Source of the DNA: Candidatus Poribacteria bacterium
GTDB lineage: Bacteria > Poribacteria > WGA-4E > WGA-3G
Assembly (NCBI GenBank): GCA_963667805.1
Contig: OY764016.1
Span: 1,874,725-1,938,724, forward strand
Direction: 5' to 3'
DNA length: 64,000 nt
The first letter of the stretch is position 1. Each line of letters begins with the position of its first letter. Under the pieces are notes generated by a model. It searched no databases. It had not been told where the DNA came from and saw nothing but the letters and a program-made list of their open reading frames with translations. A program made the translations under genes and the position numbers. Below, piece by piece: positions 3,457 through 55,703 of this stretch.

Positions 3457-3551
3457 CTGTTTTGTCTCCTTTAGTAGTAGTCAGCCGTCAGCAATCAGCA
3501 AAGCCGCAAGCGTTTCTTTTTTTTCAGGCAGCGACGGTTGACAGCCGATGT

Positions 3552-4778: not shown

Positions 4779-5184
4779 TGAGATACCCCTTTCGTTGAAG
4801 CTACGATTGAAATATTAGTTTTAATTTGCAAATTGTATGCCACTCCGAAAACATCGTCTTAGTCGTGGTCTAAATACGAACTTTAGAGGAAATATAGTAG
4901 ATTCTGTAATTACTTTTACACCAAACTCGGTGCGGTTAGAATGCAGATCGCATTTGGGCGAGTACGCCGCAAAACCGCACTTACCGGGGGTATACAGATA
5001 TTTTCGGACTTTACTATATTTGGAGAATACTGCACCAAATAGGGCAAGCAACAGTGGCACCTGCACGGATTTGTGCAATCACCTCGAGGCTGTATTCCTG
5101 TTATTTGCGAACATCAGTAGACCTCTTTATGATATTAATGACGCGAGTTAAGGACGAAATGGTTGCACAATTTTACAAAAGATT

Positions 5185-5220
5185 GGGAAAATGAATAAAG
5201 GGATAGATTCAATCTATCCC
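5185..5220 (-). terminator. rho-independent terminator after SDR gene (GGGATAGA-loop-TCTATCCC then T-rich run on minus strand)
   Basis: 8-10-bp stem read directly; T-rich tract downstream on the minus strand. Confidence 0.55.
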
Positions 5221-5289
5221 CTTTGGTGCGCTTGAAAGGAAAGTATAAGGAGGGTTTTCTGGAGAAACGATAGGCGTGTCGGATGCTGT

Positions 5290-8065: not shown

Positions 8066-8075
8066 AGCTGATTCC

Positions 8076-9185: not shown

Positions 9186-9216
9186 AGATTCACCTGTTTG
9201 GTTCCTATTGCGTCAT

Positions 9217-9990
9217 TTAATTTCCCACATCCTCCAGATAGAGGTTGAGAAACAGTTCAGCGTCATCGGTCGTTTCTGTGGGTAAAGCGTCTTCCGAAGA
9301 TGTTGTGCGAAAGGAGACACCGACGTTTGCATCATAAGTGTTATCTACTAACTGTTCGGTGTGAAGTCCGAAGTAGAAATCAAGGGTCTCTTCGTATTGC
9401 GATCCAGTCGGATTGTAAAAGTAGAGGGCACCCAAAATCAGGACGAGCGTCAGAATACCGGTTGCGCCTGCGGTAACAGGACGGAAAAACCAGCGTCCCA
9501 GGTCGGGTATCCAGCGTCTTATATCAGGTATCCATCCGGTGTGAGTGGATTCCTCTTTGCGTGCCTGTGCGGCTTGTTGGCGTATTTTCGCCATCACTGT
9601 GCTTTGGATAGATGACGGTGCAGGATGCTGAATTGTTTTGATCCGCTCTCGATTTTGGCGGAACACCGAGAGCATATTGGAACACTCGCTGCAGGAATGG
9701 AGGTGCGCTTCCATCCGATCGCGCATGTCAGGCGCCAATTCGTCATCTAAATAAGCAGAGAGTTCATCTTGAAACTGCGCATGTATTTTTGCCATCACTC
9801 CGGCTTTGAGTGTTGATGGCACTGGGCGCGCGATGTTTACGACCCTCTGACGGTTCTCTTCAAACGCTGCCAGTATATTGGAACACTCGGCGCAGGAACG
9901 CAGATGTGCTTCAATTTGCTTATGCTGGCTCGGGCTTAATTCATTATCTAAGTAGGCGGATAATTCCTCTTGGATTTTTCGATGGTTCAT
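9217..9990 (-). CDS. anti-sigma factor with two tandem zf-HC2 (putative zinc-finger) N-domains and one TM segment
   Basis: Two copies of ELSAYLD(N/D)EL...EAHL(R/H)SC(A/S)ECSN(I/M)L..F(E/R)(E/Q)NR. TM helix ATGILTLVLILGALYFY. Immediately downstream of the ECF sigma gene. Confidence 0.7.
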   Translation of the reverse strand: MNHRKIQEELSAYLDNELSPSQHKQIEAHLRSCAECSNILAAFEENRQRVVNIARPVPSTLKAGVMAKIHAQFQDELSAYLDDELAPDMRDRMEAHLHSCSECSNMLSVFRQNRERIKTIQHPAPSSIQSTVMAKIRQQAAQARKEESTHTGWIPDIRRWIPDLGRWFFRPVTAGATGILTLVLILGALYFYNPTGSQYEETLDFYFGLHTEQLVDNTYDANVGVSFRTTSSEDALPTETTDDAELFLNLYLEDVGN

Positions 9991-10020
9991 ATCTCCAATC
10001 GAGGATCGTGGTAAAAGGTG

Positions 10021-10641
10021 TTACCACTCGACTCGCTCCAATTCTTTTTTTAGTGCTTTTCGGGCTTCATGTAATCGGGATTTAACGCGTCCCAGTGTGC
10101 ATCCCAGAATTTCAGATATTTCCTCATAAGGCAGATCACGCAGTTCTCTTAACACCAAAATCTCTCTATGACTGGTTTTGAGCTTTGCGAGGGCTGCGTG
10201 AACGATTTCTTTCTCTTCGGTGCGTAGTGTTTCCTCTTCAGGTGTCACCGTATCAAGAGGGACCCACGGCTGTGAATCATCAATCTCTGTCGGATCGGTT
10301 TTTCGGCGTTGATATTGATCGATGTGGTTGAGACACTTATTTTTTACAATGCGGTAGAGCCATGTGGAAAATCGGGAGCGGAATTGGAATTTCCCGATAT
10401 TTTCCCATGCAGAGAGGAAGGCATCTTGCGCGACATCTTCAGCGTCTTGGTGATGACCGAGCATCCCGTAGGCGATATTGTAAACCCAGTGTTGATATTG
10501 AATCACAAGGGTTCCCATTGCATCGGCATCACCTTTTTGACAGCGCAAAACAATCTCACGTTCCTGTGCGAGATCCAATTCTTCTGTCTTGCTTATCTCC
10601 GAATAGGTTTCCATAGTAGTTGTCAGGGTCGCAACGGACAT
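10021..10641 (-). CDS. ECF-type RNA polymerase sigma-70 family factor
   Basis: Sigma-70 region 2 (DVAQDAFLSAWENIGKF) and region 4 HTH (LPYEEISEILGCTLGRVKSRLHEAR). Start placed at the ATG with a GGAG RBS; the ORF track extends to 10686. Confidence 0.85.
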   Translation of the reverse strand: MSVATLTTTMETYSEISKTEELDLAQEREIVLRCQKGDADAMGTLVIQYQHWVYNIAYGMLGHHQDAEDVAQDAFLSAWENIGKFQFRSRFSTWLYRIVKNKCLNHIDQYQRRKTDPTEIDDSQPWVPLDTVTPEEETLRTEEKEIVHAALAKLKTSHREILVLRELRDLPYEEISEILGCTLGRVKSRLHEARKALKKELERVEW

Positions 10642-26419: not shown

Positions 26420-26809
26420 ATGAATCACATTGAATTTTATCAAGCGAAATTGAATTATGAGACGGATTCTTGGGATCTCTTTGAGGCACTCAATAACGGT
26501 GAACCGATCGTTGTGATAGACGCGCGTTCTCCGGAGGCGTATGCCCTTGAACATATACCAACATCAATAAATATCCCGCATCGCACAATGTCTGAGGCGA
26601 CGACACGTGAACTCGATACATCTAAAGTGTATGTAACCTACTGTGATGGTATCGGTTGCAATGCCTCCACCAAAGGTGCTCTGAATATGGCGAAATTGGG
26701 GTTTCAGGTTAAGGAATTGATGGGCGGCTTAGATTGGTGGAAACGTGATGGCTATGAAACGGAAGGCGCGCATGGGGTTTCAGGAACGGGAATTGCCTGT
26801 GGGTGTTAA
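26420..26809 (+). CDS. rhodanese-like sulfurtransferase domain protein
   Basis: 129 aa with an active-site loop YCDGIGCNAS after VVIDARSPEAY. Confidence 0.75.
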   Translation: MNHIEFYQAKLNYETDSWDLFEALNNGEPIVVIDARSPEAYALEHIPTSINIPHRTMSEATTRELDTSKVYVTYCDGIGCNASTKGALNMAKLGFQVKELMGGLDWWKRDGYETEGAHGVSGTGIACGC

Positions 26810-31676: not shown

Positions 31677-32279
31677 TTACATTTTTTTAGCAGTCATAAG
31701 AATGGCTGCTAAATAAACAAATCCAAGGTATCGGACTGCGTATTTATCATAGCGAGTGGCAACACGACGAAACTGTTTCAAGCGATGAAAAAAACGCTCA
31801 ATGACATTTCGAAGTTTGTAGACGCCTTTATCATAAGGGCGTTCTTCAAGGCGGTTGCGCCGCGGACGAATCACCGCAACGCCCCCTTGAGCAAGAATCT
31901 CGGCTCTCAAAGGATCCGAGTCATAGGCAGTATCGGCAACGACACAGTCAAAGGTCTGTCCGGCAATCAATGCCGAGGCTTGGCGAACATCATGACTCGC
32001 ACCTGCCGTCAAGATAAAACGCAAGGGGCGAAAGGCATCACTCACCGCAGCGTGAAGTTTCGTCGTGAATCCCCCGTGGCTCCGACCCAAAGCTTGCTTG
32101 TTTTGACCGCCATTTTTTTTTCGGGGCACCTGCTGCGGAGGTGTGTGCCCGGACGATCGTCGAATCAACGAGGAGTGCCGAGATTTCACCCGCAGCATGG
32201 AAATGTTGATGAAGTTTTTCAAAAACACCCGCATCACACCATCTTCCAAAGCGGCGATAGACGCTGTTCCAATATCCAT
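31677..32279 (-). CDS. IS5-family transposase OrfB (DDE_Tnp_1 catalytic part; expressed as OrfAB fusion)
   Basis: DDE-region motifs (VVADTAYDSD, RNVIERFFHRLKQFRRVATRYDK). The in-frame continuation from OrfA requires loss of one A in the A9 run. Confidence 0.75.
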   Translation of the reverse strand: MDIGTASIAALEDGVMRVFLKNFINISMLRVKSRHSSLIRRSSGHTPPQQVPRKKNGGQNKQALGRSHGGFTTKLHAAVSDAFRPLRFILTAGASHDVRQASALIAGQTFDCVVADTAYDSDPLRAEILAQGGVAVIRPRRNRLEERPYDKGVYKLRNVIERFFHRLKQFRRVATRYDKYAVRYLGFVYLAAILMTAKKM

Positions 32280-32475
32280 AGGCTTTTGGCAGCCCTCGCC
32301 ACGTCGCTCCTTCTTTGGTCATCCAGACCAGAGCCGAGAGAAAGCGTTTACAGGTTTCAGGATTTCCGACATAGACGTTTGGAAGGACTTTGAGAAACGG
32401 GAGTATGCTCTGCCAAGCCACATCAGAAATCATCACGGGTAGGTCTTGAGTTGGCTCTCTGTTTTTAGATGTCAT
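32038..32475 (-). CDS. IS5-family transposase OrfA (DUF4096-like N-terminal part)
   Basis: 145 aa (MTSKNREPTQDLPVMISDVAWQSILPFL...); ends just after the A9 run. Confidence 0.7.
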   Translation of the reverse strand: MTSKNREPTQDLPVMISDVAWQSILPFLKVLPNVYVGNPETCKRFLSALVWMTKEGATWRGLPKAYGYWNSVYRRFGRWCDAGVFEKLHQHFHAAGEISALLVDSTIVRAHTSAAGAPKKKWRSKQASFGSEPRGIHDETSRCGE

Positions 32476-39746: not shown

Positions 39747-39777
39747 AGCGCGATCTTCCGATCGCGCTCTCCTTTTG
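39747..39777 (+). terminator. rho-independent terminator (AGCGCGATC-TTCC-GATCGCGCT + CTCCTTTT)
   Basis: Perfect 9-bp stem and T-run after the DUF1080 gene. Confidence 0.7.
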
Positions 39778-39957
39778 GGCAGAAAAGCAAATTGATGGCA
39801 AAAACCAGAGCCATTCAGTTTTCGGTTTCTGAGTGCCTTATCGAGAATAGATATGTGACTTTCGGCACAAATCGGGGTTACAAACCCCTCCCACAAGAGA
39901 AATTTGGGACAATTGAATGGCTCTGTGGCGAAAACTAAATTCTATGGACACCCCTAC

Positions 39958-39975
39958 AGAAGTTGTGATATACTA
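39958..39975 (+). promoter_or_regulatory. extended -10 promoter (TGaTATACT) immediately upstream of lepA; likely near-leaderless mRNA
   Basis: TG-N-TATACT element ends 8 nt before the lepA ATG, and no SD is present. Confidence 0.4.
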
Positions 39976-39983: not shown

Positions 39984-41789
39984 ATGCCAACACATCTTGA
40001 AAATATACGGAATTTCTGCATTTTAGGGCACATCGACCACGGAAAAAGCACCTTGAGCGATAGGCTTCTTGAGCATACGAACACGCTCACCGAGCGCGAT
40101 ATGCGCGAACAGGTGCTGGATTTGATGGATTTAGAGCGTGAACGCGGTATTACCATTAAAGCAACGGCTGTCAAACTCCATTACCCCGCCACTGACGGAA
40201 ATCGATACGAACTCAATCTGATCGACACCCCCGGACATGTCGATTTCACGTACGAGGTCTCCCGCAGCCTCGCGGCGTGCGAAGGTGCCATTCTCATCGT
40301 TGATGCCGCGCAAGGGGTTGAAGCACAAACCTTAGCAAACGCATATCTCGCGATTGACAACGATCTTGAGATTATCCCAGTCGTCAATAAAATCGATCTA
40401 CCCACCGCACAACCCGATGAAGCCAGACGGCAGATAGAAGAGGTTATCGGTATCCCTGCCGACGATGCGCTCCTCGTTAGCGCGAAAATGGGGATCGGTA
40501 TTCCCGCCATACTGGACGCAATTATCAACCGAATCCCCGCCCCCGTTGGCGAGCCTGAAGCCCCTTTAAAGGCACTCGTGCTCGACTCTGTCTATAATAA
40601 CTATCGCGGTGTCATCATGTACACACGAATCTTTGAGGGGAGTGTGAAACCGGGGGAAAAGATTCAACTCATGGAGACGAAACGCTCCTATGAGGTTGAG
40701 GAGGTCGGCATCTTCACACCAGAAATGCAACCGACTTCCGAACTCCGCACGGGTGCTGTCGGCTACCTCATCGCAGGCATCCGAGAGATCGACAAAGCAA
40801 AAATCGGGGATACAATTACACATCATACGAAACCGACAGCAACACCCCTTCCCGGTTATCGCGAGATGAAACCGCTTGTATTCAGCGGTCTCTATCCAGC
40901 AGACACAAACCAGTTTCATGCCCTGCGCGAGGCACTCGACAAACTACGCCTCAATGATTCCTCCTTCAATTTTGAACCTGAGACGTCCATTGCGCTCGGA
41001 TTCGGGTTTCGGTGCGGGTTTCTCGGTTTACTTCACATGGAGATTATCCATGAACGCCTTGAGCGGGAATTCGGACTCGCGCTTGTCCGAACTGCCCCGA
41101 GCGTGATGTATCGAGTCTACCTGAAAACCGGTGGATACGTACCGGTCGACAATCCAGCACACCTTCCAGAACCAAATGATATCGAACATATAGAAGAACC
41201 GTATGTCAATATTGACATTATCGTTCCGCGCGACTATATTGGAAACGCGATGGAACTTTGTCAGAAGCGTCGGGGTGTATATAAGCGGATGAACCAATTG
41301 GACGTAAGTCGCGTGCAACTGCTCTATGAACTTCCGCTCAGCGAAATGCTAACGGATTTCTATCCGAAACTCAAATCATTGACACGCGGGTACGGTTCGT
41401 TAGAATATGACATTGGGGACTACAAAACCGAAGAACTCGTTAAATTAGACGTGCTACTGAACGGTAATCCGGTAGACGCTCTCTCAACGATTTTACCACG
41501 AGACAACGCGGAAACGCGGGGCAAGGCATTAGTGTCCAAGTTGAAAGAACTCATTCCGCGTCAAATGTTTGAAGTCCCCGTTCAAGCCGCAATTGGTAAC
41601 AAGATTGTTGCCCGTGAAACAGTGCGAGCCCTCCGAAAAAACGTTACTGCGAAATGCTACGGCGGCGATGTGACGCGAAAACGGAAATTGTTAGAGAGGC
41701 AGAAAGAGGGCAAAAAGCGACTCAAACAGATCGGTAATGTCGATGTCCCACAAGAAGCTTTTACAGCGATGTTGGCAACTGATGAATAG
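39984..41789 (+). CDS. lepA: translation elongation factor 4 (LepA)
   Basis: [25 protein letters not shown]1 motif, DTPGH, NKID, and full-length 601 aa. Confidence 0.95.
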
Positions 41790-41873
41790 GAAAAACAAAA
41801 CACACAATCGCGACCAGAGTAGCGACAAAGGAGAACGCTCTTTTCATTGAAGCTTCATAACATTATGAATAAC

Positions 41874-42641
41874 AACGATACGCAATTATCCAAATGGCAA
41901 AAATTTCGGAAAACAATTGTATGGGAATATACCCAAGTTATTGTTGTGGCACTCATTCTCGTTTTCGGATTTATACGCCCCTTTGTTGTTGAGGCATTCA
42001 AAATTCCTTCCGGTTCAATGGAGGATACGCTTCTTATCGGAGACCGGATTCTGGTATGTAAATTTATCTACGGCATTAAAATCCCCGGCACGGACATCAA
42101 GGTTCTCGATTTCCATAAACCTGCCCGAGGAGATGTTTTCGTTTTCATTCCACCCCACGATCGGGAACGAAATTTCATCAAGCGCATCGTAGCCGTTGAA
42201 GGGGATACTATTGAGACCCGCGGCGACACACTCTATGTAAACGGTGAAGCTGTCGACGATGGTTATTACACTAAGCACATGACCTTTAGCCATTTCAGAA
42301 GAGGTAATTTTCCACCCTTCCGTCAACCGGAGTATCTGCCAGAGAGCGATGGTTTTTCGGATTTCGCCCTAACGGCAAGTCAATTCAAACGTAAGTTCCC
42401 TGAAGGTAAACCGTTCACTGTCCCTAAAGGCATGGTGTTTGCTATGGGTGATAATCGCGATCAGAGCAGCGATAGCCGTTCCTGGGGACCCGTGGATGTA
42501 AACGACATCAAAGGGCAAGCCTTTATGGTGTACTGGTCATTTGACGCCCGTCCAGCGAAATTGTGGGAAGTGTGGAAAATGGTAGGGAATGTCCGTTTCA
42601 ATCGAATCGGCAAACTCATCCATGCCTACCCATCTTTTTAA
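41874..42641 (+). CDS. lepB: signal peptidase I
   Basis: Catalytic Ser region PSGSMEDTL, and the K-containing box plus GDNRDQSSDSRSWG. Start uncertain; the track ORF starts at TTG 41847. Confidence 0.85.
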   Translation, partial: NDTQLSKWQKFRKTIVWEYTQVIVVALILVFGFIRPFVVEAFKIPSGSMEDTLLIGDRILVCKFIYGIKIPGTDIKVLDFHKPARGDVFVFIPPHDRERNFIKRIVAVEGDTIETRGDTLYVNGEAVDDGYYTKHMTFSHFRRGNFPPFRQPEYLPESDGFSDFALTASQFKRKFPEGKPFTVPKGMVFAMGDNRDQSSDSRSWGPVDVNDIKGQAFMVYWSFDARPAKLWEVWKMVGNVRFNRIGKLIHAYPSF

Positions 42642-42776
42642 TGATTGCTTCTGAGCTGCTGCGGACGTTGTCCTTGCAGATTCTGAATCGTTAAAAAGCC
42701 TTTGATAACTTGGAAATGGTTGGCATTAACCAAAAATCACCGTGAAACGAAGTGGAACGATTTAACAGTTTAAAAA

Positions 42777-44717
42777 ATGCATCAAGACAGACGACACCTC
42801 ATCATTGGCACAGCAGGACACGTTGACCATGGAAAAACCGCGCTCGTCGGGGCACTTACCGGTATGGAAACCGATCGGCTCAAGGAAGAGCAAGAACGTG
42901 GTTTGTCTATTGAGTTAGGGTTTGCCTATTTTGACCTCTCGGACGACTCGCGGGCAGGTATCGTTGACGTTCCAGGTCATGAAAAATTCATCCGAAGCAT
43001 GCTCTCCGGGGCTTACGGTATGGATATCGTCCTCTTCGTCGTTGACGCGAAAGAAGGCGTTCAGGAACAGACCCTCGAACATCTGGCAATCTTAGATCTG
43101 CTCGGCATCTCAAACGGTATCCTCGTCATGACGAAATCCGACTTGGCGACTGCTGATGAATTGGCAGAAGCAACCGAAATGACGCAGGAGATGCTCATCG
43201 GGACAAGCCTTGAAGCCATCCCAACTGTGAGTGTTTCCGCATTAACCGGCGCAGGTATTGAAACACTAAAAGAGACCATCGTCAAACAGGTAGCACTCGC
43301 GACGGAAACCGAAGAAAACGATGGTATCCCGAGATTATACGTTGACAGGGTTTTCACCGTTCAAGGGTTCGGCGTTGTTGTGACAGGCACGCTCATCGGT
43401 GGATCGATCCAGCGAGACCAGCGGATGGTGATTCTTCCACAGGGGCATACTGTGCGGATCCGAGGGATACAGGTCCATAATGAAACTGCACCCGTAGCGC
43501 AAGCCGGACAGCGGACAGCAGTGAACCTTTCCGGCGTCTCTGCCCAGGACCTCCAACGCGGCGATGTCCTTTGCCCAATTGATTTCTCACAAGTGACGGA
43601 CAATATTGACGTGTCGATGCAAGTGCTGTCCTCATTTCCAAGGATACTTGAACATTGGACGCGTCTCCGGGCGTATCTCGGCACTCGCGAAATATTTTGC
43701 AGATTAATCCTACTCGTGGACGATGCCATTTTGCCGGGGGATACCATTCAGGTTCAACTCCGCTTAGAACAACCCATCCTAACGTTCAGAGGCGACAGAA
43801 TTATTTTACGCGATTTTTCAGCGCAATATACAGTCGGGGGTGGTGAAGTTATTAACCCATTTGCCCCAAAGCATAAGCGGTTCACCCCTGAAACCATCGC
43901 TACTTTAGCACAATGGGAAGAAGCCGATGATGCCCAGGTCGTGAACACTGTCTTAGAAAATAGCGAGTCACTCTGCGTGCCAGAGTCCTTCCTGCATTAC
44001 TATTTACCACAGTCACAGACGAACGTGAATGCGATCTTAACCGGCTTGGAAGCAGACGGGAAAATTGTGCGCTGGGATAAATCGGGCAGGTCGCCGCTCG
44101 TTTCTGATGCTGTTCGGACGGCAAATATCAAAGAGAAAATTATAGAAACGTTGACAGCATTCCATTCGGCAGAACCCCTCCTTGCCGGTCAAAATGCTTC
44201 ACAACTGCGTCGAGAACTCAAATTGGACGAAATCGGCTTTGAGAAACTCGAAAACCAACTCATTACCGAGGGGCAACTCGCCAAAGACGGCAATCTTCTC
44301 CGATTGGCATCTCACGAAATCCAGTTTTCCGAAGAGGAAGAAACCGCGAAGGAGAGACTCGAAAAACTATTCTTGGAAGCAGGTATGAATACACCCACTT
44401 TCAACGAACTCAGCACGCACCTTCCAGACTATACACCGCAGTTACTGGAATCCACGTTTTTCGCACTTCTGAACTTAGGGCAGTTTGTCAAAATAGCGGA
44501 TAACTTCTTTATCCACAAAACCGTTTTTGAGGAGATACAGGAATTATTAACCACTTACCTTCGCAAAAATGATACAATAACCGTTGCCGAATTTCGAGAA
44601 ATGGCACAAACTTCTCGAAAATATGCGGTGCCGTTTTTGGAATACTGCGATAGCCGGAACCTCACGATCCGAGACGGGAATATCCGTAAGTTGCATCCGC
44701 GGCACTTGCAGGCATAG
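42777..44717 (+). CDS. selB: selenocysteine-specific translation elongation factor SelB
   Basis: [22 protein letters not shown]-domain. 646 aa with C-terminal winged-helix region. Immediately followed by tRNA-Sec. Confidence 0.9.
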
Positions 44718-44734
44718 TTTGCAGTGTCCATGAT

Positions 44735-44828
44735 GGGGGAGGATAGGGTCCGGTGGCCCTACCGGTCTTCAAAACCGGCTTGTCCATGCAAGTGGATAGG
44801 TGGGTTCGACTCCCACCCTCTCCCGCCA
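44735..44828 (+). tRNA. selC: tRNA-Sec (anticodon TCA), 94 nt with 8-bp acceptor stem and long variable arm; CCA encoded
   Basis: GGGGGAGG...CCTCTCCC acceptor. Anticodon loop CTTCAAA. Extra arm CTTGTCCATGCAAGTGGATAGG. T-arm GGGTTCGACTCCC. Terminal GCCA. Confidence 0.85.
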
Positions 44829-44849
44829 TTAGCTTAGAAGTAGACGGCA

Positions 44850-44880
44850 GCCATGCAACAACGGCGCATGGCAGATTTTT
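44850..44880 (+). terminator. rho-independent terminator after selC (GCCATGC-AACAACGGC-GCATGGC + AGATTTTT)
   Basis: 7-bp perfect stem with T-run. Confidence 0.7.
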
Positions 44881-44924
44881 GAAAGGTTCGTGCCTGACAG
44901 CTCCCGTTAGGGGTAAATTGAAAG

Positions 44925-45818
44925 ATGTTAAAAACGCTTCCATTAGTTGAACAAAGAACACCCCAAAGACGGCATCCGTCCTGGATTAAAGCTCGGATGC
45001 CGAGTGGCGGTAACTACGCTGAACTCAAGAAATTGATGCGGGATCTGCAACTTCACACAGTCTGCGAAGAGGCACGCTGTCCCAACATCGGTGAGTGTTG
45101 GAACAGCCGGACCGCTACCTTTATGATACTCGGTGATGTCTGCACGCGCCGCTGCATGTTCTGTGCGGTGAAAAAAGGCACGCCCGGTGGGATCGTTGAT
45201 GCCGATGAACCGCGCAGACTCGGTGCAGCCGTCGGTCACTTAAAACTCAAGCACGTGGTTATCACCTCAGTCAATCGGGACGACCTTGTGGACGGAGGTG
45301 CGAGTATTTTCGCCGCATGCATCGCCGAAGCCCGAAAACATCGTCCGGGATGCACCGTGGAAGTTCTCATCCCCGACCTCGAAGGCAATTGGGAGGCCCT
45401 CGCTGTCATTGTGCAAGCACGACCGGAAGTGCTCAATCATAACACCGAAACGGTTCCACGTCTTTATCGCCGCGTCCGTCCGTATGCGAATTATCAACAA
45501 ACCCTGAACCTGCTCCGCACCAGCAAACAACTGGATGCACAGATGCTCACAAAGTCGGGACTTATGGTCGGCTTAGGTGAGACTGTGACAGAACTCTTAG
45601 AGACAATGGAAGACCTCCGCAACACCGAATGTGATATTCTCACTGTGGGTCAATACCTCTCCCCTTCCCCGCGTCATTTGCCCATTCAACGCTATTATAC
45701 CCCTGAAGAATTTGAAGAGATCAAAGAAGCAGGCATCGAAATGGGGTTTCGACATGTAGAGTCGGGACCCTTAGTGCGGAGCTCCTACCATGCCGGTGAA
45801 CAAGCAAAGTTAGCATAA
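44925..45818 (+). CDS. lipA: lipoyl synthase
   Basis: CEEARCPNIGEC and radical-SAM CTRRCMFC cysteine clusters; 297 aa. Confidence 0.9.
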   Translation: MLKTLPLVEQRTPQRRHPSWIKARMPSGGNYAELKKLMRDLQLHTVCEEARCPNIGECWNSRTATFMILGDVCTRRCMFCAVKKGTPGGIVDADEPRRLGAAVGHLKLKHVVITSVNRDDLVDGGASIFAACIAEARKHRPGCTVEVLIPDLEGNWEALAVIVQARPEVLNHNTETVPRLYRRVRPYANYQQTLNLLRTSKQLDAQMLTKSGLMVGLGETVTELLETMEDLRNTECDILTVGQYLSPSPRHLPIQRYYTPEEFEEIKEAGIEMGFRHVESGPLVRSSYHAGEQAKLA

Positions 45819-46044
45819 AACTAACCCTCATTATAGCATTTAACACCGGTCCCATCTTCAATCGCGCCCTCTACATATTTCCGAGAAATTTTCAGACTTT
45901 ACATTAAATCCGATTTTTGATATACTAATGCCTGAAGCACACATTTTTGCAGCACTGCAAAATACCTCGCGTTTCCTTCATGACACGGTTTCTAAAGAAG
46001 TAAGAAGTTGGGATTGTCTCACCATCAGCACAAGGAGGGGGAAC

Positions 46045-47772
46045 ATGAACAGACATATTTTCTCTGAAGCATCAAACTGTTGTTCACACATAAAACGCGT
46101 AAGTTTCATTATCTTCGTCGTAAGTTTAGTATTTGCTGCGACACCGAGTCTCATCACAGCTGGAACCACACCGGATATCCAACCCGTCACGAACGAGATG
46201 TTACTCTCATCACAAGACGACCCTGAAAGCTGGCTGATGTATGGACGGGACTACAGAAGCTGGCGATATAGTCAACTCACACAGGTTAACACTGAAAACG
46301 TCAAAAAACTCGTCCCGAAATGGGCATTTCAAATTGGAACGCCCTTCGATAAGTTTGAATGCACGCCACTTGTCGTCAATGGTGTGATGTTCATCACCAC
46401 TCCCTACAGCACTATCTACGCTGTGGACGCAAGAACCGGCAAGGAAATATGGCGGTATGATTATGAACTCCCTGACGATTTAGCGATCTGCTGCGGTATG
46501 GTGAACCGTGGTGCTGCTATCTTGGGCGATAAAATCTTTTGGGTAACGCTTGACGCACACCTCCTCGCCCTCGATGCGAAGACCGGCAGGGTCCTCTGGG
46601 ACAGAGTGGTCGGAGATCTGACGAACGCTGAATCCCTCACTGTCGCCCCGTTAGTCGTCAAAGACAAAGTGATCGTCGGCATATCAGGCGCAGAATACGG
46701 CATCCGAGGCTATATCGATGCGTATTACGCCGAAACAGGTGAACAGGCATGGCGATTTTACACCGTCCCGTCAAAAGATGAACCCGGCGGCGACACATGG
46801 GAAGGCGATTCATGGATGACAGGTGGCGGATCCGCTTGGGTCACAGGTTCCTACGACCCGGAATTGAATCTCGTCTACTGGGGAACGGGTAACCCGGCAC
46901 CAGACTGGAACGGTGCTGTCCGGAGAGGCGACAACCTCTATACCGACTGTATCGTTGCGTTGGATGCCGATACCGGAAAACTCAAATGGTATTTTCAAGC
47001 CACACCCCACGATCTATGGGATTGGGATGGCGTGAGTGAACCCGTCCTGATCGATATGGAGATAGATGGCGCACCGGTCAAAGCGTTGATGCAAGCGAAT
47101 CGCAACGGCTATTTCTATGTGCTTGATAGAACCAACGGAAAATTTCTATACGCAAGCACTTACTGTGAACAGAACTGGTCGGCTGGACTCGATGAAAACG
47201 GACGTCCTACCGTCCTACCCGGCGTGTCCACCTCAGAAGAAGGCACGATTCGCGTCTGTCCCGGCGTTGAAGGCGGCAAGAACTGGCCCCCTTCAGCCTA
47301 TAACCCGCTCACAAATTACCTCTATATCCCATCGTTGGAACTCTGCGGCTCCTATCATCAAGGGCGCGTTTTCTATGTGAAAGGGCTACCCTACCTCGGA
47401 AGTGGTATGACAGCAGACAGGGACGAAGCTGGCAACATGGAGATGTGGGGACATATCAGTGCAATCGATGTTTCTACAGGTGAGATTAAATGGCGCCACA
47501 AAACGAACTTCCCACAATGGGGTGGATGCCTCACAACGGCAGGAGGTCTCGTTTTTGCGGGGGATTTAGAGGGCAGATTCATGGCACTCTCGGCAGAAAC
47601 CGGCGAAGTGCTTTGGGATTTTCAGACTGGATCCGGGGTTCTCGCACCCCCCATTACCTATCGACTCGACGGTGTCCAATATGTTGTGATAGCGTCAGGT
47701 GCTGTGAAATATGCTGAAGTCAACGCTCGCGAAGGCGGAACCCTTTTTGTGTTCGCGCTCTTTGATGAATAG
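46045..47772 (+). CDS. PQQ-dependent alcohol/methanol dehydrogenase, XoxF/ExaF-like (signal peptide; vicinal CC; DWD motif)
   Basis: AGGAGG RBS at the MNRHIF start. Signal peptide. Eight-bladed PQQ propeller W-motifs. Vicinal disulfide AICCG. Asp-x-Asp (WDWDG) at the position recalled as lanthanide-type. Confidence 0.85.
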   Translation: MNRHIFSEASNCCSHIKRVSFIIFVVSLVFAATPSLITAGTTPDIQPVTNEMLLSSQDDPESWLMYGRDYRSWRYSQLTQVNTENVKKLVPKWAFQIGTPFDKFECTPLVVNGVMFITTPYSTIYAVDARTGKEIWRYDYELPDDLAICCGMVNRGAAILGDKIFWVTLDAHLLALDAKTGRVLWDRVVGDLTNAESLTVAPLVVKDKVIVGISGAEYGIRGYIDAYYAETGEQAWRFYTVPSKDEPGGDTWEGDSWMTGGGSAWVTGSYDPELNLVYWGTGNPAPDWNGAVRRGDNLYTDCIVALDADTGKLKWYFQATPHDLWDWDGVSEPVLIDMEIDGAPVKALMQANRNGYFYVLDRTNGKFLYASTYCEQNWSAGLDENGRPTVLPGVSTSEEGTIRVCPGVEGGKNWPPSAYNPLTNYLYIPSLELCGSYHQGRVFYVKGLPYLGSGMTADRDEAGNMEMWGHISAIDVSTGEIKWRHKTNFPQWGGCLTTAGGLVFAGDLEGRFMALSAETGEVLWDFQTGSGVLAPPITYRLDGVQYVVIASGAVKYAEVNAREGGTLFVFALFDE

Positions 47773-47864
47773 TTTTCAGTTATCGGTTGTCGGTTATCAG
47801 TTAAGAGACGCTTCGGTTGATTCAGAAATCTCTTTAACCGAAAACCAATAGATAGGAGGGTACC

Positions 47865-48734
47865 GTGAAACACTATATTCTCTTGTGGGCAGCACTTTTC
47901 ATACTGTCTGCTCCGATGTTGCACACTGCAGACGCTGTCGATGCCTTGGAAGAAATTCGAGCAAAGGGTGTCTTAACGGTCTGTATGGACATCCGAAATC
48001 TGCCTTACTCCAACGTTGATCCCGAACTTCCTGGATTATATGTTGAGATCGCTCATCTACTGGCAGCGGAACTCGGTGTTAAGTTGGAATTCCACTGGCT
48101 TAGCACCCTCCGTGATAGTCTGCTGGCTGACATGATACGCGGACATTGCGACTGTGTGATCGGAGTTCCCATTGAGGAGCGCGCCATGGCTGAAGCGATT
48201 CAATTGGGGGAAAACGTTGATTTCTCTACGCCCTTCTACGGGACGGGATACGTATTGGTAAAACAGAAAAGTAATCAAGCGTCACCGAAAACGCTGGAGG
48301 ACATTAAGTTAGAAACGATTGGGACAGAAGCGGGTTCCATCGCAAGCGATGTCCTTCGACAGACGGGATATAAGCGTCGCGTTTATCGCTCACAAATTGC
48401 CGTCTTGGACGCTCTCAAGAAAGGGCAAATTGCTTACGGATATGTCTGGTCAAATATTGGGTGGTTGATTGAAAAGGGTTCCCGAATTCAGCAGCCAGAA
48501 CACACGGATACTGTTTATCCTGAATTAGAGATTGTTAAAGAATACACCCCTGAAGCGCGTCTCCGTTGGAATATCGCTATTGCTTTTGGCAAAGATACAT
48601 CAACACGAGAAACACGTGAACTTCAAGATGTTGTTAACACAATTATCGAACAGAAATGGAGTGAAGAAAAACTCAGAGAACTCTCTGAAAAGTATTATTT
48701 GCCTTACTTCGCTCCGTTTCAGGAGGATGAATAG
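47865..48734 (+). CDS. quinoprotein-dehydrogenase-associated periplasmic binding protein (MxaJ/XoxJ-like, SBP family 3)
   Basis: GTG start with AGGAGGG RBS. Signal peptide. Family-3 solute-binding fold. Lies between the PQQ dehydrogenase and the cytochrome c. Confidence 0.65.
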   Translation: MKHYILLWAALFILSAPMLHTADAVDALEEIRAKGVLTVCMDIRNLPYSNVDPELPGLYVEIAHLLAAELGVKLEFHWLSTLRDSLLADMIRGHCDCVIGVPIEERAMAEAIQLGENVDFSTPFYGTGYVLVKQKSNQASPKTLEDIKLETIGTEAGSIASDVLRQTGYKRRVYRSQIAVLDALKKGQIAYGYVWSNIGWLIEKGSRIQQPEHTDTVYPELEIVKEYTPEARLRWNIAIAFGKDTSTRETRELQDVVNTIIEQKWSEEKLRELSEKYYLPYFAPFQEDE

Positions 48735-48736
48735 AA

Positions 48737-49660
48737 ATGATGTATTATTCTACCCGCGTTCGAACCTCTACCGTCCGAATAACGTGGTGCATTCTTCTCC
48801 TCTCTCTGGGGCTAAGTCTCTTCTTTTTTTCTGTCGTAAATGCCCAAAACTTAGAGGTGGATATTGCCCCCGAAGCACCGAGAGACGTGAGTTATGACGA
48901 AGACGTTATCGACGGCGCGTTCTACTTCCGTTTGATGTGTTGGAATTGTCACGCCCAACAAACACGCGGTGGCAGAGCACCCGATCTCTTTAAACCGCAG
49001 TGGCTTTACGGATGGACTGATGACGGTATCTTCCAGACTGTATTCAACGGACTTCCGGGGACCGAGATGCAGAAGTTTGGTGGCAAACTTTCTGATGAAG
49101 CAATTAATATGATTGTTGGCTACGTTCGTTCGGAACAAGCGAAAGCGGCGGGGGTCTCTTTAGAGGAAGCGAAACCGACTCAGGACTGGACGCCATATAT
49201 GGAAGGCGATGTCAAAGCAGGAGAAGCCATTTTCTTCTCAGAAGGGTACGCTTGCGGTAAGTGCCACACAGTTCACGGGAGAGGTGCCACCGGAACAGGC
49301 AGCGAAATAGGTCCCGATATGACGTATGTCGCTCGCACCCGTTCACCGCAATTCATTGTCGAGTCTATTCTCAATCCACGCGCGTATATCGCGCCTGAAT
49401 ATGAAATGATTACCATTTTCACGAAAGACGGGCAGGAAATCACAGGTAGGAAGCGCCACCAATACGATCACAGAGACAGATTAGACCCTGAAACGATCCA
49501 GCTCCTCGACAATTCTGGGAAGTTGTGGACAACCTACCTCATAAAGGATATAAGGAGCACCAGCGTTCCACAAGCAGGTGTTATGCCTGAAAACTTCGCA
49601 GATATTCTGTCAGTCAAACAGATGCACGACCTTTTGGCGTATCTATTCACGTTGAAATAA
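48737..49660 (+). CDS. diheme cytochrome c (XoxG-like partner)
   Basis: Two CxxCH motifs (CWNCH, CGKCH) and an N-terminal signal-anchor. Confidence 0.75.
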   Translation: MMYYSTRVRTSTVRITWCILLLSLGLSLFFFSVVNAQNLEVDIAPEAPRDVSYDEDVIDGAFYFRLMCWNCHAQQTRGGRAPDLFKPQWLYGWTDDGIFQTVFNGLPGTEMQKFGGKLSDEAINMIVGYVRSEQAKAAGVSLEEAKPTQDWTPYMEGDVKAGEAIFFSEGYACGKCHTVHGRGATGTGSEIGPDMTYVARTRSPQFIVESILNPRAYIAPEYEMITIFTKDGQEITGRKRHQYDHRDRLDPETIQLLDNSGKLWTTYLIKDIRSTSVPQAGVMPENFADILSVKQMHDLLAYLFTLK

Positions 49661-49718: not shown

Positions 49719-50522
49719 ATGATTGGTGTGATTATTAATGGGGCATGTGGCCGTATGGGACGGCTTATTATCCGAGGTGTTACTGAACAAACCGATATGG
49801 AAATCGTCGGCGCGATTGAGTTCCCGGAACACCCACAGCTCGGGAGTGATGCCGGTGTTGTTGCCGGCATCGGAGAAATAGGCGTCGCGGTTACAGGTAA
49901 CCTTGAAGATGTACTTGACAACGCAGATGTTGTCATCGAATTCTCGAAACCTGAGGCTACTCTGGACCACCTCCGACAAGTCGTCAATGCCGACAAAGCG
50001 ATGATAATTGCAACAACCGGATATGACCCTGATGAACTCGCCACTGTCGAAGAACTCGCATCACAGATCCGTTGCGTAATGGCACCCAACATGAGTCTCG
50101 GTGTCAATGTGATGATTCAGGCACTGGAATTAATCGCCAAAGCCCTCGGGGACGATTACGACATTGAAGTGATAGAGGCACATCACAATCACAAAGCAGA
50201 TTCACCCAGCGGCACGGCACTCCGCTTAGCGGAAACCGTTGCTCAGGCATTGGGGCGAGATTTAGATGAGGTCGGTGTCTACGGTCGCCACGGTATCGTT
50301 GGCGCAAGACCGAAAAAACAGATAGGCATTCATGCAGTTCGAGGGGGTGATATCGCCGGCGACCATACAGTATTGTTCGCAACAGAGGGTGAGCAACTCA
50401 GCGTCGTCCACCGAGCACACAGCCCAGAGGCTTTCGCTAAAGGCGCAATCCGCGCAGCGAGATGGGTCATCGACGCCCCTAAAGGATTACATGATATTAG
50501 CGAAGTCCTGTTTCAGGAATAG
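49719..50522 (+). CDS. dapB: 4-hydroxy-tetrahydrodipicolinate reductase, copy 1
   Basis: GACGRMGR NAD(P)-binding motif and EAHHNHKADSPSGTA DapB signature; 267 aa. Confidence 0.85.
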   Translation: MIGVIINGACGRMGRLIIRGVTEQTDMEIVGAIEFPEHPQLGSDAGVVAGIGEIGVAVTGNLEDVLDNADVVIEFSKPEATLDHLRQVVNADKAMIIATTGYDPDELATVEELASQIRCVMAPNMSLGVNVMIQALELIAKALGDDYDIEVIEAHHNHKADSPSGTALRLAETVAQALGRDLDEVGVYGRHGIVGARPKKQIGIHAVRGGDIAGDHTVLFATEGEQLSVVHRAHSPEAFAKGAIRAARWVIDAPKGLHDISEVLFQE

Positions 50523-50593: not shown

Positions 50594-51391
50594 ATGATTC
50601 GTGTTGCTGTCACCGGTGTTTGCGGTCGTATGGGACGTTGCATCACGCGCGGCATTGCCCAACACCGCAATATGCAACTCGTTGGAGCCGTCCAATACCC
50701 CTCACATCCACAGATCGGAAGTGATGCGGGTGTTGTCGCCGGTATCAGTGAGATTGGCGTAACCATTACAGGCAAACTTGACGACGTACTTCACCGTTCA
50801 GATGTTGTCATCGAATTTTCAAAGCCTGAAGCAACCCTGGACCACCTCCAACACGTCGTCGATGCAGATAAAGCCATGGTTCTTGGAACAACCGGTTTTA
50901 CCGCAGACGAACTCGCGACCCTCCAAGCGCTTGCATCACAGATCCGTTGCGTAATGGCACCCAACATGAGTCTCGGTGTCAATGTAATGATACAAGCATT
51001 GGAATTAATTGCCAAAACCCTGGGAAATGATTATAATATTGAAGTGATAGAGGCACATCACAATCACAAAGCAGATTCACCCAGTGGCACAGCACTCCGT
51101 GTAGCGGAGACGCTTACCACGGCACTTGAGCAAGATTTAGACGAGGCGTGTGTTTACGGTCGCCACGGCATCGTTGGCGCAAGACCGAAAAAACAGATAG
51201 GCATTCATGCAGTTCGAGGGGGCAACATTGCCGGGGATCATACAGTGTTGTTCGCAACAGAGGGTGAACAACTCAGCGTCATCCATCGAGCACACAGTCC
51301 AGAGGCTTTCGCCAAAGGTGCAATCCGCGCAGCGGAATGGATAATCGACGCGCCTAAAGGGTTACACGATGTTAGCGAAGTCCTGTTTTAA
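50594..51391 (+). CDS. dapB: 4-hydroxy-tetrahydrodipicolinate reductase, copy 2 (tandem paralog)
   Basis: About 75% identical to copy 1, with the same signature. Same conserved 25-bp leader before the ATG. Confidence 0.85.
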   Translation: MIRVAVTGVCGRMGRCITRGIAQHRNMQLVGAVQYPSHPQIGSDAGVVAGISEIGVTITGKLDDVLHRSDVVIEFSKPEATLDHLQHVVDADKAMVLGTTGFTADELATLQALASQIRCVMAPNMSLGVNVMIQALELIAKTLGNDYNIEVIEAHHNHKADSPSGTALRVAETLTTALEQDLDEACVYGRHGIVGARPKKQIGIHAVRGGNIAGDHTVLFATEGEQLSVIHRAHSPEAFAKGAIRAAEWIIDAPKGLHDVSEVLF

Positions 51392-53405
51392 CCGATGCCT
51401 GATACCTCACACCTATTTTATTCTGCTATGCATCGGTATTCTATTTATGGTCGGTTGTGAACAAACAGCGTCCCAAAAACAGGTCCGGTACGAGTGGAAA
51501 ACTGTCATAGAAGGCGATTGGAGTTCACACCTCTACGATGTTCATTTCGTTTCTGAAAAGCGGGGTTGGGCAGTTGGTAACGCCATAGATGTACTTCCTG
51601 GCGCCGATTTTGGAGAAGGCGCGGAAAGTCTCATCGTTCACACAAACAACGGTGGCGAAACATGGCACAGACAACACAGCGGCGTTTTCAACAAACCCCT
51701 CCGAAACGTGTATTTTCGTTCAGCGTCAGAAGGCTGGTGTATCGGTGAAGGCGGCGTTCTGATCCGGACAACCGACGGCGGGGAAACCTGGCAGCACATT
51801 GAAACCGGGACGGAAAACAACCTGCATGACCTCTTCATAGGCAATGAAACGGGTTGGATTGTGGGCGACTGGGGCACAGTGCTAAAAACAACCGACGGTG
51901 GGCAGACGTTCGCACAGATTGATGGACAGGCGTTCGGCAGAAAGTCATTGAAAGGTGTCCATTTCGTAGACGAAAACCGAGGATGGGTCGTTACCTATAG
52001 CACACCGACCTCCGAAACAAAATCAGGAAAGGCCGGCTATATCTATCGGACAACCGATGGTGGAGAAACTTGGGAGGTCCAATTCGTGACAGAAGCCGCC
52101 CTGTTCAACCTCCATTTCATAGACAAACAAACGGGTTGGGTTGTCGGTGACCGACGGAGCATCTTCCTGACAACCGACGGTGGGAACACATGGGACTTCG
52201 TCACTCGCGGAACCAATGAACGCCATAAAAGTAGCTACGGTCAACCGGATTATCTCGGCAATGAGCCGCTGCATACCTTTACACTTTACGATCTTGACTT
52301 TATAGATGCCCAAAACGGTTGGATTGTTGGCGACTTAGGCGTGATTCTCCACACCGCGTCGGGTGGAAAAGAAAAATGGAAACATCAACGTGGGGGTCCG
52401 CGTTTCCACAACAGCGCAGATGCCGTCCTGTTAGGTGTTGACTTCGTTTCCAAGCAAATCGGTTGGGCAGTCGGTGAAAACGGCACCATCCTGCACACCC
52501 GCAATGGGGGTGTGACTTGGGAATCCCAATCCAGTCCGAGCCATCTCTTGGTAGGTGTATGCGCCATCTCGCCCGATGAAGGATACGTTGTCGGTGACCG
52601 GGGCGCGATTCTACGAACCGAGGATGGAGGGGTCGTATGGAACGCGCAAGACAGCCGCACGACTGAGTGTTTTGGGGCAACGCATTTCGTGTCATCACAA
52701 ATAGGATGGGCAGTCGCAGAAGCCGGCGTCGTCCTGCATACCACAAATGGTGGCACGGTATGGCAACGTCAAGTTTCAGGGACACAGCAGGACCTGCTCA
52801 GTGTTTTCTTTACAGACGAAAAAAATGGATGGTGTGTCGGAAGCGGCGGTGAAATCATCCACACAGATGATGGTGGGAAAACATGGCAACCGCAAAAGAG
52901 CGGAACCCATTGGAATCTGTTTGACGTTTATTTCATCTCCAAACGACGCGGTTGGGCAGTCGGTCTGAACGGAACAATACTTTTTACAACTGATGGCGGT
53001 ACCAATTGGAAGTTGTTACCGCTCAGCCAACGCTACCCGTCTTTTCTATTGGATGCCGTCACCTTCGTCACCCCAGAGAGAGGCTGGGTCGTAGGATTAG
53101 ATTTACGCAGTTTAGGTATGGATGGTTTGATCCTACATACCGAGAATGGCGGTAAAACATGGCAACGTCAAGAGAGCCATACCCGCAATTTTCTTGACGA
53201 TGTATTTTTTCTATCAGAAACAGAAGGCTGGATTGTTGGAAAAGAGGGACTTGTCCTCCATACAAAGAATGGTGGACAAAACTGGAGACCGCAGCATACA
53301 GATACCAGAACGGATCTGAAGGCTATCCACGTAAGCAGTACAAATAGCGGATGGGCAGTTGGGCAAAATGGAACAATTCTCAGATATGAAGCCGTTCCGT
53401 TTTAG
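51369..53405 (+). CDS. BNR/Ycf48-like (PSII_BNR-type) repeat lipoprotein
   Basis: 678 aa. Lipoprotein-like signal ...LLCIGILFMVGC. About 12 repeats of GW(A/I)VG...T(T/D)DGG(x)TW. Overlaps the dapB copy 2 3' end by 23 nt. Confidence 0.75.
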   Translation: MLAKSCFNRCLIPHTYFILLCIGILFMVGCEQTASQKQVRYEWKTVIEGDWSSHLYDVHFVSEKRGWAVGNAIDVLPGADFGEGAESLIVHTNNGGETWHRQHSGVFNKPLRNVYFRSASEGWCIGEGGVLIRTTDGGETWQHIETGTENNLHDLFIGNETGWIVGDWGTVLKTTDGGQTFAQIDGQAFGRKSLKGVHFVDENRGWVVTYSTPTSETKSGKAGYIYRTTDGGETWEVQFVTEAALFNLHFIDKQTGWVVGDRRSIFLTTDGGNTWDFVTRGTNERHKSSYGQPDYLGNEPLHTFTLYDLDFIDAQNGWIVGDLGVILHTASGGKEKWKHQRGGPRFHNSADAVLLGVDFVSKQIGWAVGENGTILHTRNGGVTWESQSSPSHLLVGVCAISPDEGYVVGDRGAILRTEDGGVVWNAQDSRTTECFGATHFVSSQIGWAVAEAGVVLHTTNGGTVWQRQVSGTQQDLLSVFFTDEKNGWCVGSGGEIIHTDDGGKTWQPQKSGTHWNLFDVYFISKRRGWAVGLNGTILFTTDGGTNWKLLPLSQRYPSFLLDAVTFVTPERGWVVGLDLRSLGMDGLILHTENGGKTWQRQESHTRNFLDDVFFLSETEGWIVGKEGLVLHTKNGGQNWRPQHTDTRTDLKAIHVSSTNSGWAVGQNGTILRYEAVPF

Positions 53406-54533: not shown

Positions 54534-55703
54534 ATGATTACAATCGCAGAACGGTTAGAAAAACTTCCACCCTATCTTTTTGTAGACCTGCGCCAAAAAA
54601 TGCAGGCAGCACAAGCGCGCGGTGTCGATGTGATTAGCCTCGGTATCGGTGACCCGGATCTTCCAACACCTGACCCAGTTGTTGAAACCTTATGTAGTGC
54701 GATTCAAAATCCCGATGATGCAGACAGGCACCGCTACGGCTGCGACAACCCTGTTGACGATTTTCCACAGGCAGTCCTCGACTTTTACCAGCACCGTTAC
54801 GGGGTCTCCTTATCCGATGATCAGGTAGCGACAACGCTCGGTAGTAAAGACGCAATTGTCAAAATGGCACTCGGTATCCTCAATCCGGGCGATATTGGTA
54901 TAGCGGCGAGTCCAGGCTACCCTACCTACAATATCGGACACGTCTTCGCCAGTGCAACGAGCTACTATGCTCCGCTTCTGCGAGAAAATGATTTCTATGT
55001 TGACTTTGACGTTATTCCTGATGAAGTGAAACGACTTGCCAAAGTTCTCTGGATCAACTATCCAAACAATCCGACAACCGCCACTGCCAACCTCGATTTT
55101 TTCGAGCGTGCCGTGGAGTTTGGTAGACAAAATAACATCCTGATCGCGCACGACAACGCCTATAGTGAGAACACCTACGACGGTTATCGCTCACCCAGTA
55201 TATTGCAGGTGGAAGGTGCAGCGGAAGTTGCGGTTGAGTTTTTCTCATTAAGCAAAGCGTTCAACATGACAGGCTGGCGCTTGGGATTTGTCGTTGGCAA
55301 CCCAACTGCTGTTAGTGCAGTCAAAACGGTGAAAGATAATATCGACAACGGTTCACTCCGCTCACTTCAATTCGCCGGTGCAAAGGCACTTTCAATAGCG
55401 GACGAGATTACCCCCGCAATCAATGTCGTTTATCAAAAACGCCGCGATATGGTGGTAGATGCCCTGAGAGACAGCGGGTGGACACTCGAGAAGCCGAAAG
55501 CAACAATGTATGTTTGGGCACCGGTCCCTGAGCGTTTTAACGGTTCAAGTCGTGCCTTTGCGACGGCATTGCTTGAAGAAGCGGGTGTTGTTGTAACACC
55601 AGGTCTCGGATATGGACAGTGGAGCGAAGGCTATTTTAGAATCTCGCTGACATACCCAGACGGAGTGATTGCGGAAGCCATTTCGCGTATTCGCGCTTTT
55701 TAA
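54534..55703 (+). CDS. class I (fold-type I) PLP aminotransferase, LL-diaminopimelate aminotransferase (DapL)-like
   Basis: KLPPYLFVDL...GVDVISLGIGDPDLPTP N-terminal pattern and SLSKAFNMTGWRLG PLP-lysine region. Linked to the dapB genes. Confidence 0.7.
   Translation: MITIAERLEKLPPYLFVDLRQKMQAAQARGVDVISLGIGDPDLPTPDPVVETLCSAIQNPDDADRHRYGCDNPVDDFPQAVLDFYQHRYGVSLSDDQVATTLGSKDAIVKMALGILNPGDIGIAASPGYPTYNIGHVFASATSYYAPLLRENDFYVDFDVIPDEVKRLAKVLWINYPNNPTTATANLDFFERAVEFGRQNNILIAHDNAYSENTYDGYRSPSILQVEGAAEVAVEFFSLSKAFNMTGWRLGFVVGNPTAVSAVKTVKDNIDNGSLRSLQFAGAKALSIADEITPAINVVYQKRRDMVVDALRDSGWTLEKPKATMYVWAPVPERFNGSSRAFATALLEEAGVVVTPGLGYGQWSEGYFRISLTYPDGVIAEAISRIRAF

Follow-up and report, generated by a model that had tools for sequence, protein, structure and literature searches.

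Does a selB gene that is followed immediately by a tRNASec gene (selC) still decode selenocysteine (Sec) when the rest of the Sec genes lie out of sight, and is such a pair a transcription unit of its own? The question is raised by a locus of Candidatus Poribacteria in the window, the 64-kb stretch of DNA that was analyzed in this study. In bacteria, tRNASec is charged with serine and converted to Sec-tRNASec by SelA with selenophosphate from SelD. SelB then delivers Sec-tRNASec to UGA codons that have a SECIS element after them. The best explanation, to which I assign a probability of about 0.88, is that the locus is the canonical Sec-decoding pair of sponge-symbiont Poribacteria, lying in one lepA-to-lipA transcription unit, with SelA, SelD and the selenoproteins encoded elsewhere. 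According to this reading, selB would encode the Sec-specific EF-Tu-like GTPase and selC the tRNASec(UCA), while the selA, selD and selenoprotein genes would be sited elsewhere in the genome. The genes lepA, lepB, selB, selC and lipA all lie on the same (plus) strand, and the features discussed below are as follows.

39984–41789 (+): lepA (EF4), which opens a conserved syntenic block (TIGR01393, 977.8 bits)
41847–42641 (+): lepB (signal peptidase I; TIGR02227, 155.3 bits)
42642–42776 (+): lepB-selB spacer, 135 nt, without conservation in relatives
42777–44717 (+): selB, selenocysteine-specific elongation factor, 646 aa (TIGR00475, Pfam domains, PDB matches, motifs, dN/dS)
44718–44734 (+): selB-selC spacer, 17 nt, too short for a promoter (sequence reading)
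44735–44828 (+): selC, tRNASec(UCA), 94 nt including G73 and CCA (ARAGORN, Rfam RF01852)
44850–44880 (+): hairpin, AGA and T5, a candidate intrinsic terminator or attenuator (7 bp, 9-nt loop, −12 kcal/mol)
44925–45818 (+): lipA (lipoyl synthase), which closes the conserved block (TIGR00510, 379.4 bits; NF004019, 424.2 bits)

An Intact selB-selC Pair

The ORF at 42777–44717 was matched by the selB equivalog TIGR00475 of NCBIfam with 346.2 bits (cutoff 242.25; E = 3.7e-103), and the alignment covers profile positions 1–579 of 581, which is full length. The Pfam domains found were GTP_EFTU, GTP_EFTU_D2, Beta-barrel_SelB, SelB-wing_2 (residues 456–510) and SelB-wing_3 (residues 594–639). The last two make up the C-terminal winged-helix (domain IV) module, whose domains are predicted to bind the SECIS hairpin. 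Among solved structures, the top match was E. coli SelB (5lzb_z, 6.4e-66), aligned over nearly the full length (residues 8–639 to residues 1–605 of 614), and the next was 4zu9. The GTPase motifs were found at residues 14 (G1, GHVDHGKT), 64 (G3, DVPGHE) and 119 (G4, TKSD). selB is under strong purifying selection: the median dN/dS was 0.056 when the relatives were each compared with the window copy as the reference, with synonymous sites saturated in the more distant pairs, and the ORF has no internal stops in 78 loci.

ARAGORN predicted a tRNA-SeC (tca), one of two tRNAs in the window, at exactly 44735–44828. Rfam RF01852 matched 44735–44824 over the full model (1–91) with 78.1 bits against a gathering score of 47 (E = 2.3e-14), and this tRNASec and a tRNA-Asn were the only above-threshold Rfam matches across the whole window. 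The acceptor stem consists of 8 bp (residues 1–8 with 83–90, one G-U pair), the D stem of 6 bp (11–16 with 21–26) closed by a 4-nt loop at 17–20, and the anticodon stem of 5 bp (28–32 with 40–44) with the loop CUUCAAA. The UCA anticodon (tca at positions 35–37) is invariant in all relatives. The extra arm is 20 nt long (46–65) with a 6-bp stem (47–52 with 59–64) and is followed by a 5-bp T stem (66–70 with 78–82). The discriminator is G at position 91 (G73), after which CCA is encoded.

This structure was assessed over 21 distinct tRNASec sequences of Poribacteria. All 30 pairs are present in the window copy, and 99.7% of cells are paired over the distinct sequences, whereas controls in which the 3′ partner was slid out of register gave 46–60%. 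The 13-bp acceptor/T domain of the bacterial 8/5 type and the extra-arm stem are both 100% paired, and the D stem is 98.4% paired. One compensatory double change, from U-A to A-U, was found in the extra arm. The 21 sequences vary too little for strong covariation statistics, and it is their near-invariance that serves as the signal; 32 of the 79 extracted copies, that of the window among them, share one and the same tRNASec sequence. selB and selC are both clearly maintained by selection, and the pair is intact and canonical. The initial annotation had named this ORF selB and had described a 94-nt tRNASec with an 8-bp acceptor stem, a UCA anticodon and a long extra arm. The former is confirmed by the TIGR00475, Pfam and PDB matches, and the latter by sequence reading and RF01852. 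It had also proposed a check of 44735–44828, and the ARAGORN call falls on those very coordinates.

Gene Order in Poribacteria

Is this arrangement common in the phylum? With SelB as the query, 80 related loci were obtained from GTDB species representatives. All 80 are on Candidatus Poribacteria MAGs or chromosomes, mostly sponge-associated, with 73–98% amino-acid identity; the closest SelB relative (98%) is on JAJEDB010000017.1. ARAGORN found a tRNA-SeC directly 3′ of selB in 76 of the 80 loci. As for the four exceptions, three contigs end at or inside selB, and in the fourth (L010) selC is split by an intron. The gene order lepA-lepB-selB-selC-lipA is kept wherever the contigs reach, and lipA comes after selC in nearly all relatives. 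Thus, the order given in the initial annotation was borne out both by the NCBIfam calls and by conservation across the loci. In the window, the next gene after lipA encodes a PQQ-dependent dehydrogenase.

The spacers are variable in length. The lepB stop codon abuts or overlaps the selB start codon in 30 loci, and the gap is at most 41 nt in about 25 more; the full range is 0 to 304 nt, with 135 nt in the window. No conserved promoter or structured block was found in the lepB-selB spacer in an alignment of the loci. The selB-selC spacer ranges from −12 to 414 nt in relatives and is mostly 13–44 nt, with 17 nt in the window. The selC-lipA gap is 17–40 nt in most relatives by a tblastn-based estimate over all loci, and 96 nt in the window.

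Insertions were seen at selC in several relatives. The L010 locus (Poribacteria chromosome OZ246979.1) has an insert of 2334 nt that interrupts selC within the 3′ strand of the T stem, after tRNA position 81; the insert begins with GTGCG and ends with ...CUACCCUAC. An Rfam match to group II intron domain V/VI (69.9 bits) ends exactly at the insert boundary, and the insert encodes a 578-aa protein with RVT_N, RVT_1, GIIM and HNH domains. The joined exons are identical to the window tRNASec. A candidate EBS1 of 7 nt, at intron position 262, is complementary to the final 7 nucleotides of the exon. Group II introns are very rare in bacterial tRNA genes. One case is TeI4h in tRNA-Ile (PMC2882425), and six loci in 4,934 genomes have been reported, all in anticodon or D loops (PMC13011429). 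A scan of metagenome contigs for the split-selC exon/intron junction GGGTTCGAYTCCCAGTGYG used a pattern that proved too unspecific: the loci obtained were ordinary tRNAs in 120 of 120 cases, with no tRNASec among them, and none of the 120 was similar to the L010 intron or its protein. In three other loci (L018, L027 and L036), a DNA methyltransferase-HNH fusion lies between selC and lipA, and L027 also has an AAA ATPase there. The selC site is a local target for mobile DNA in these relatives (the group II intron and the methyltransferase-HNH cargo).

Transcription of the Locus

The initial annotation had given selC its own terminator. Is the selB-selC pair a self-contained unit, or selC an independent gene, that ends at 44850–44880, with lipA transcribed separately? 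The hairpin and the T-tract do exist. The sequence GCCATGC-(9 nt)-GCATGGC at 44850–44872 lies 22 nt past the tRNA and is followed by AGA and then by T5 at 44876–44880. Its stem of 7 bp is GC-rich, with 5 G-C pairs; the centroid energy of the hairpin is −12 kcal/mol, and the same hairpin is kept in two relatives (L001 and L021). The 135-nt gap before selB in the window would also suit a separate unit. On the other hand, dinucleotide shuffles of the 62-nt region fold just as well as the region itself (z = −0.54); the loop is as long as 9 nt, and 3 nt separate the stem from a short U-tract. A terminator pattern scan passed over this hairpin on account of its 9-nt loop.

The comparison with relatives argues against a self-contained unit as well. 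The lipA start was located by pattern in 29 relatives, and 20 selC-lipA spacers of ≤150 nt were read, 14 of which are 17–58 nt long. The hairpin with T5 was found only in the window, L001 and L021 and is missing from 17 of the 20, and most relatives leave just 17–40 nt between selC and lipA. The spacer before selB is unconserved and vanishes (0 nt) in 30 loci. No plus-strand sigma-70-like site was found between lepB and lipA, be it before selB, within the 17 nt from selB to selC or past the hairpin and ahead of lipA (the scan may not fit Poribacteria promoters). Promoter-like sites were found at 39945–39974, just before lepA, and at 45898–45926, before the PQQ dehydrogenase gene, and a terminator-like hairpin at 39747–39768, upstream of lepA; the site counts of the sigma-70 and terminator scans were never above those of shuffles, and these sites serve as context only. 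A self-contained unit is therefore unlikely. What stands of the earlier claim is the hairpin with its T5; its weak part is the self-contained unit, given the 3 of 20 spacers, the z score and the short spacers of most relatives.

The reading preferred here is that selB-selC probably lies within a larger operon that runs from lepA to lipA. The tRNASec is probably embedded in a polycistronic transcript, because lipA starts so soon after the tRNA in most relatives and lepB abuts or overlaps selB in 30 loci. I infer the co-transcription from lepA to lipA from spacing and synteny. With lepA, lepB, selB, selC and lipA as one transcription unit, the tRNASec would be released from the polycistronic RNA by RNase P on its 5′ side and by trimming of its 3′ end back to the encoded CCA. 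The hairpin at 44850–44880 is probably at most a lineage-specific attenuator. In the window genome, the hairpin and U5 would bring about, at most, partial termination or attenuation of read-through into lipA. A local promoter or a working terminator may be present in the window, because its spacers (135 nt and 96 nt) are longer than is typical of the phylum.

Protein genes are often just 15–40 nt away from selC on both sides in Poribacteria. It is tentatively proposed, as a possibility of fairly low probability, that across Poribacteria the tRNASec has a fixed place inside a housekeeping operon, as an internal cistron, and that its excision sets the SelB:tRNASec ratio, cuts the transcript and makes the 5′ end of the lipA RNA. 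If this is true, the Sec machinery and the expression of lipoate synthesis would be coupled through tRNASec excision.

The Rest of the Sec Pathway

Where are the other Sec genes? The initial annotation had noted the lack of selA, selD and any selenoprotein gene in the window, and this held when about 50 ORFs were profiled: none of them matched selA, selD or a known selenoprotein family in NCBIfam or Pfam, and no credible in-frame-TGA gene was found within the 64 kb. The window was also searched mechanically for neighboring ORFs in one frame with a TGA between them, as had been suggested; 30 pairs were listed, all of which could be explained, with no credible selenoprotein among them. The pairs at 463–3474 lie antisense to a minus-strand ORF of >1160 aa that extends beyond the left edge of the window. 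The pair at 31677–32429 is orfA/orfB of an IS5-family element. The remaining pairs fall on larger annotated genes, either in antisense or in another reading frame. Extensions of gene ends across a TGA are all ≤43 aa and overlap neighboring genes, and the intergenic gaps hold just a Cys-type rhodanese ORF and hypothetical ORFs. When public assemblies were queried for the exact SelB protein, no record was returned.

Published data on related genomes are informative. Most sponge-symbiont bins contain the SelA and the SelB COG together (Slaby et al. 2017, PMC5649159). According to Table S4 of that study, Ca. Poribacteria WGA-3G and bin70 (Ca. Poribacteria) each have two COG1921 (SelA), one COG3276 (SelB) and one COG0709 (SelD), and bin44 (Ca. 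Poribacteria) has four, one and two, respectively (PMC5649159). The WGA-3G genome is among the 80 loci (L034) and carries the same selB-selC locus as the window. In a 2026 survey, Poribacteria (GTDB phylum) is listed as one of the phyla that have group 4 [NiFeSe] hydrogenases of the Sec type (PMC13582414). Beyond these two papers, the literature that was searched contained almost nothing on the Poribacteria selenoproteome.

Could the pair be a decaying relic of a lineage that has lost selenoprotein use? The 64-kb window without selA, selD or a selenoprotein gene would fit such a loss, but a full-length selB ORF in 78 loci with a dN/dS of about 0.056 and saturated synonymous sites, a nearly invariant tRNASec with its base-pairing kept, and SelA and SelD COGs in three Poribacteria genomes make it very improbable. 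Rather, the canonical pair with its partner genes elsewhere is the preferred reading, and the earlier proposal that the organism decodes UGA as Sec appears well supported, if indirectly, by the selB dN/dS of 0.056, the 99.7% pairing of the tRNA and the SelA and SelD COGs of related genomes.

Comparison with Known Systems

In E. coli, whose Sec system consists of the selAB operon, selC and selD, selB goes together with selA, and selC stands apart from them; in contrast, the Poribacteria window has selB paired with selC, without selA, inside lepA-lepB...lipA. The SelB proteins share the same plan, with EF-Tu-like domains I–III and winged-helix domains (structures 5lzb–5lzd), and differ in length (646 aa in the window and 614 aa in E. 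coli). The tRNASec species are alike in the 8/5 fold, the 6-bp D stem, the long extra arm, UCA and G73. Another point of comparison is the E. coli thrU-tyrU-glyT-thrT-tufB operon, in which tRNA genes are co-transcribed with a protein-coding gene. As in that operon, the tRNA would lie in an mRNA operon beside a translation-factor gene and would need RNase P and 3′ processing for its release. The difference is that the window tRNA has an internal position, between protein genes, and that its co-transcription is deduced.

Adjacent, overlapping and nested selB-selC genes and selABC(D) clusters have been documented (Mukai 2021, PMC8124441), in a study that did not cover Poribacteria. The window resembles those arrangements in that selC comes right after selB on one strand, the two probably share a transcript, and another ORF begins a short distance past the tRNA. 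It differs in that selB and selC do not overlap (17-nt spacer) and in that the neighbors are the housekeeping genes lepA, lepB and lipA, not fdoGHI or selA/selD. One relative of the window does have an overlap: in L070, the TAG stop codon of selB is formed by tRNA positions 10–12. This resembles the partial selB-selC overlaps described for Dyella, Luteibacter and Nitrospirae (PMC8124441). Thus, the window locus differs from known Sec machinery in context, not in kind, and the arrangement is already known.

The least probable alternative, close to negligible, is a Sec-like recoding tRNA (tRNA-ReC/selC* or an allo-tRNA) inserting Cys or another residue at UGA: such tRNAs, known in uncultured lineages, share the long extra arm and the UCA anticodon (PMC5389517; PMC13582414), but tRNA-ReC is defined by a U discriminator (PMC13582414) where G is found here, the window tRNA folds in the canonical bacterial 8/5 manner, with 6 bp in the D stem, and not as 8/4 or 9/3, the RF01852 score is well above the gathering score, and a canonical selB is the immediate neighbor of the gene.

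Conclusions

The canonical Sec-decoding pair remains the preferred reading of this locus. It is a textbook selB/selC pair that standard pipelines recognize, and the sole mild oddity is that the tRNASec is embedded in the conserved lepA-lepB-selB-selC-lipA block. This Poribacteria sponge symbiont appears to retain working Sec-decoding genes. Since these genes are kept, gene callers will truncate or split selenoprotein genes at UGA, and the annotation of Poribacteria genomes should add a selenoprotein-aware pass.

A split tRNASec gene

I found that the tRNASec gene (selC) of one related locus, L010 (positions 7959-10386, on the Candidatus Poribacteria chromosome OZ246979.1), is interrupted by a group II intron of 2334 nucleotides. 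The intron sits after tRNA position 81, in the T stem, on its 3′ strand. It starts with GTGCG at its 5′ end, and its 3′ boundary coincides with the exact end of a match to Rfam RF00029 (69.9 bits). RVT_N, RVT_1, GIIM and HNH domains are present in the intron-encoded protein. When joined, the exons match the tRNASec of the window exactly, and the adjoining selB gene is intact. Bacterial tRNA genes are reported to host group II introns solely in the anticodon or D loop (PMC13011429), and in tRNAIle (TeI4h, PMC2882425). Because the reported cases are confined to these loops and to tRNAIle, an insertion in the T stem of selC looks unreported.

The same locus has two tandem copies of lepB upstream of selB (3975-5693), whose products are 74% and 95% identical to the LepB of the window.

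Overlap of selB and selC

In another relative, L070, the selB reading frame enters the tRNASec gene for 12 nucleotides (7933-7944), and its TAG stop codon corresponds to tRNASec positions 10 to 12. This partial overlap resembles those described in other phyla (Mukai 2021, PMC8124441).

Other genes in the window

Features of the window
1-3480, minus strand: large Ycf48/BNR-like repeat protein
26420-26809, plus strand: small rhodanese-domain ORF, 129 amino acids (Pfam Rhodanese, 1.8e-15)
31677-32475, minus strand: IS5-family insertion sequence with overlapping orfA and orfB
32038-32475, minus strand: its orfA (DUF4096)
31677-32279, minus strand: its orfB (transpos_IS5_3, 146 bits)
45928-49660, plus strand: PQQ-dependent dehydrogenase cluster
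49719-50522, plus strand: dapB, first full-length paralogue (TIGR00036, 302 bits)
50594-51391, plus strand: dapB, second full-length paralogue (TIGR00036, 292 bits)
51369-53405, plus strand: second large Ycf48/BNR-like repeat protein
54534-55703: LL-diaminopimelate aminotransferase

One apparent TGA-split ORF pair in the window is accounted for by the IS5-family element, whose overlapping orfA and orfB probably encode a frameshift-type transposase. The rhodanese ORF, just 5′ of a tRNAAsn gene, has no in-frame TGA, and its active-site loop holds a Cys residue (YCDGIGC).

The cluster directly 3′ of lipA is found in only some relatives. Besides a PQQ-dependent dehydrogenase of the methanol/ethanol family (TIGR03075, 662 bits), it encodes a c-type cytochrome and a MoxJ-like periplasmic binding protein. 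It is followed by the tandem dapB paralogues (4-hydroxy-tetrahydrodipicolinate reductase). Both repeat proteins have many repeats, with 7-9 stretches matching NF010237; the first exceeds 1160 amino acids and continues beyond the left end of the window.

The region between selC and lipA

A short conserved motif, CTCCCGTTAGGG, lies at 44897-44908 of the window and forms a CCC-GTTA-GGG mini-hairpin. It is found again in several relatives with longer selC-lipA spacers (L001, L012, L015, L021, L038 and L049), about 15-20 nucleotides 5′ of the lipA start.

In three other relatives, selC and lipA are separated by 1.5-3.6 kb of additional DNA, which codes for a fusion of an N6/N4 DNA methyltransferase with an HNH nuclease.

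Positions of the coding regions in the selC-lipA inserts
L018, 4527-5909
L027, 8546-11605
L036, 9029-10294

The L027 insert additionally encodes an AAA_15/AAA_21 ATPase. These gene contents suggest that the three inserts are small restriction or defence cargo beside selC.
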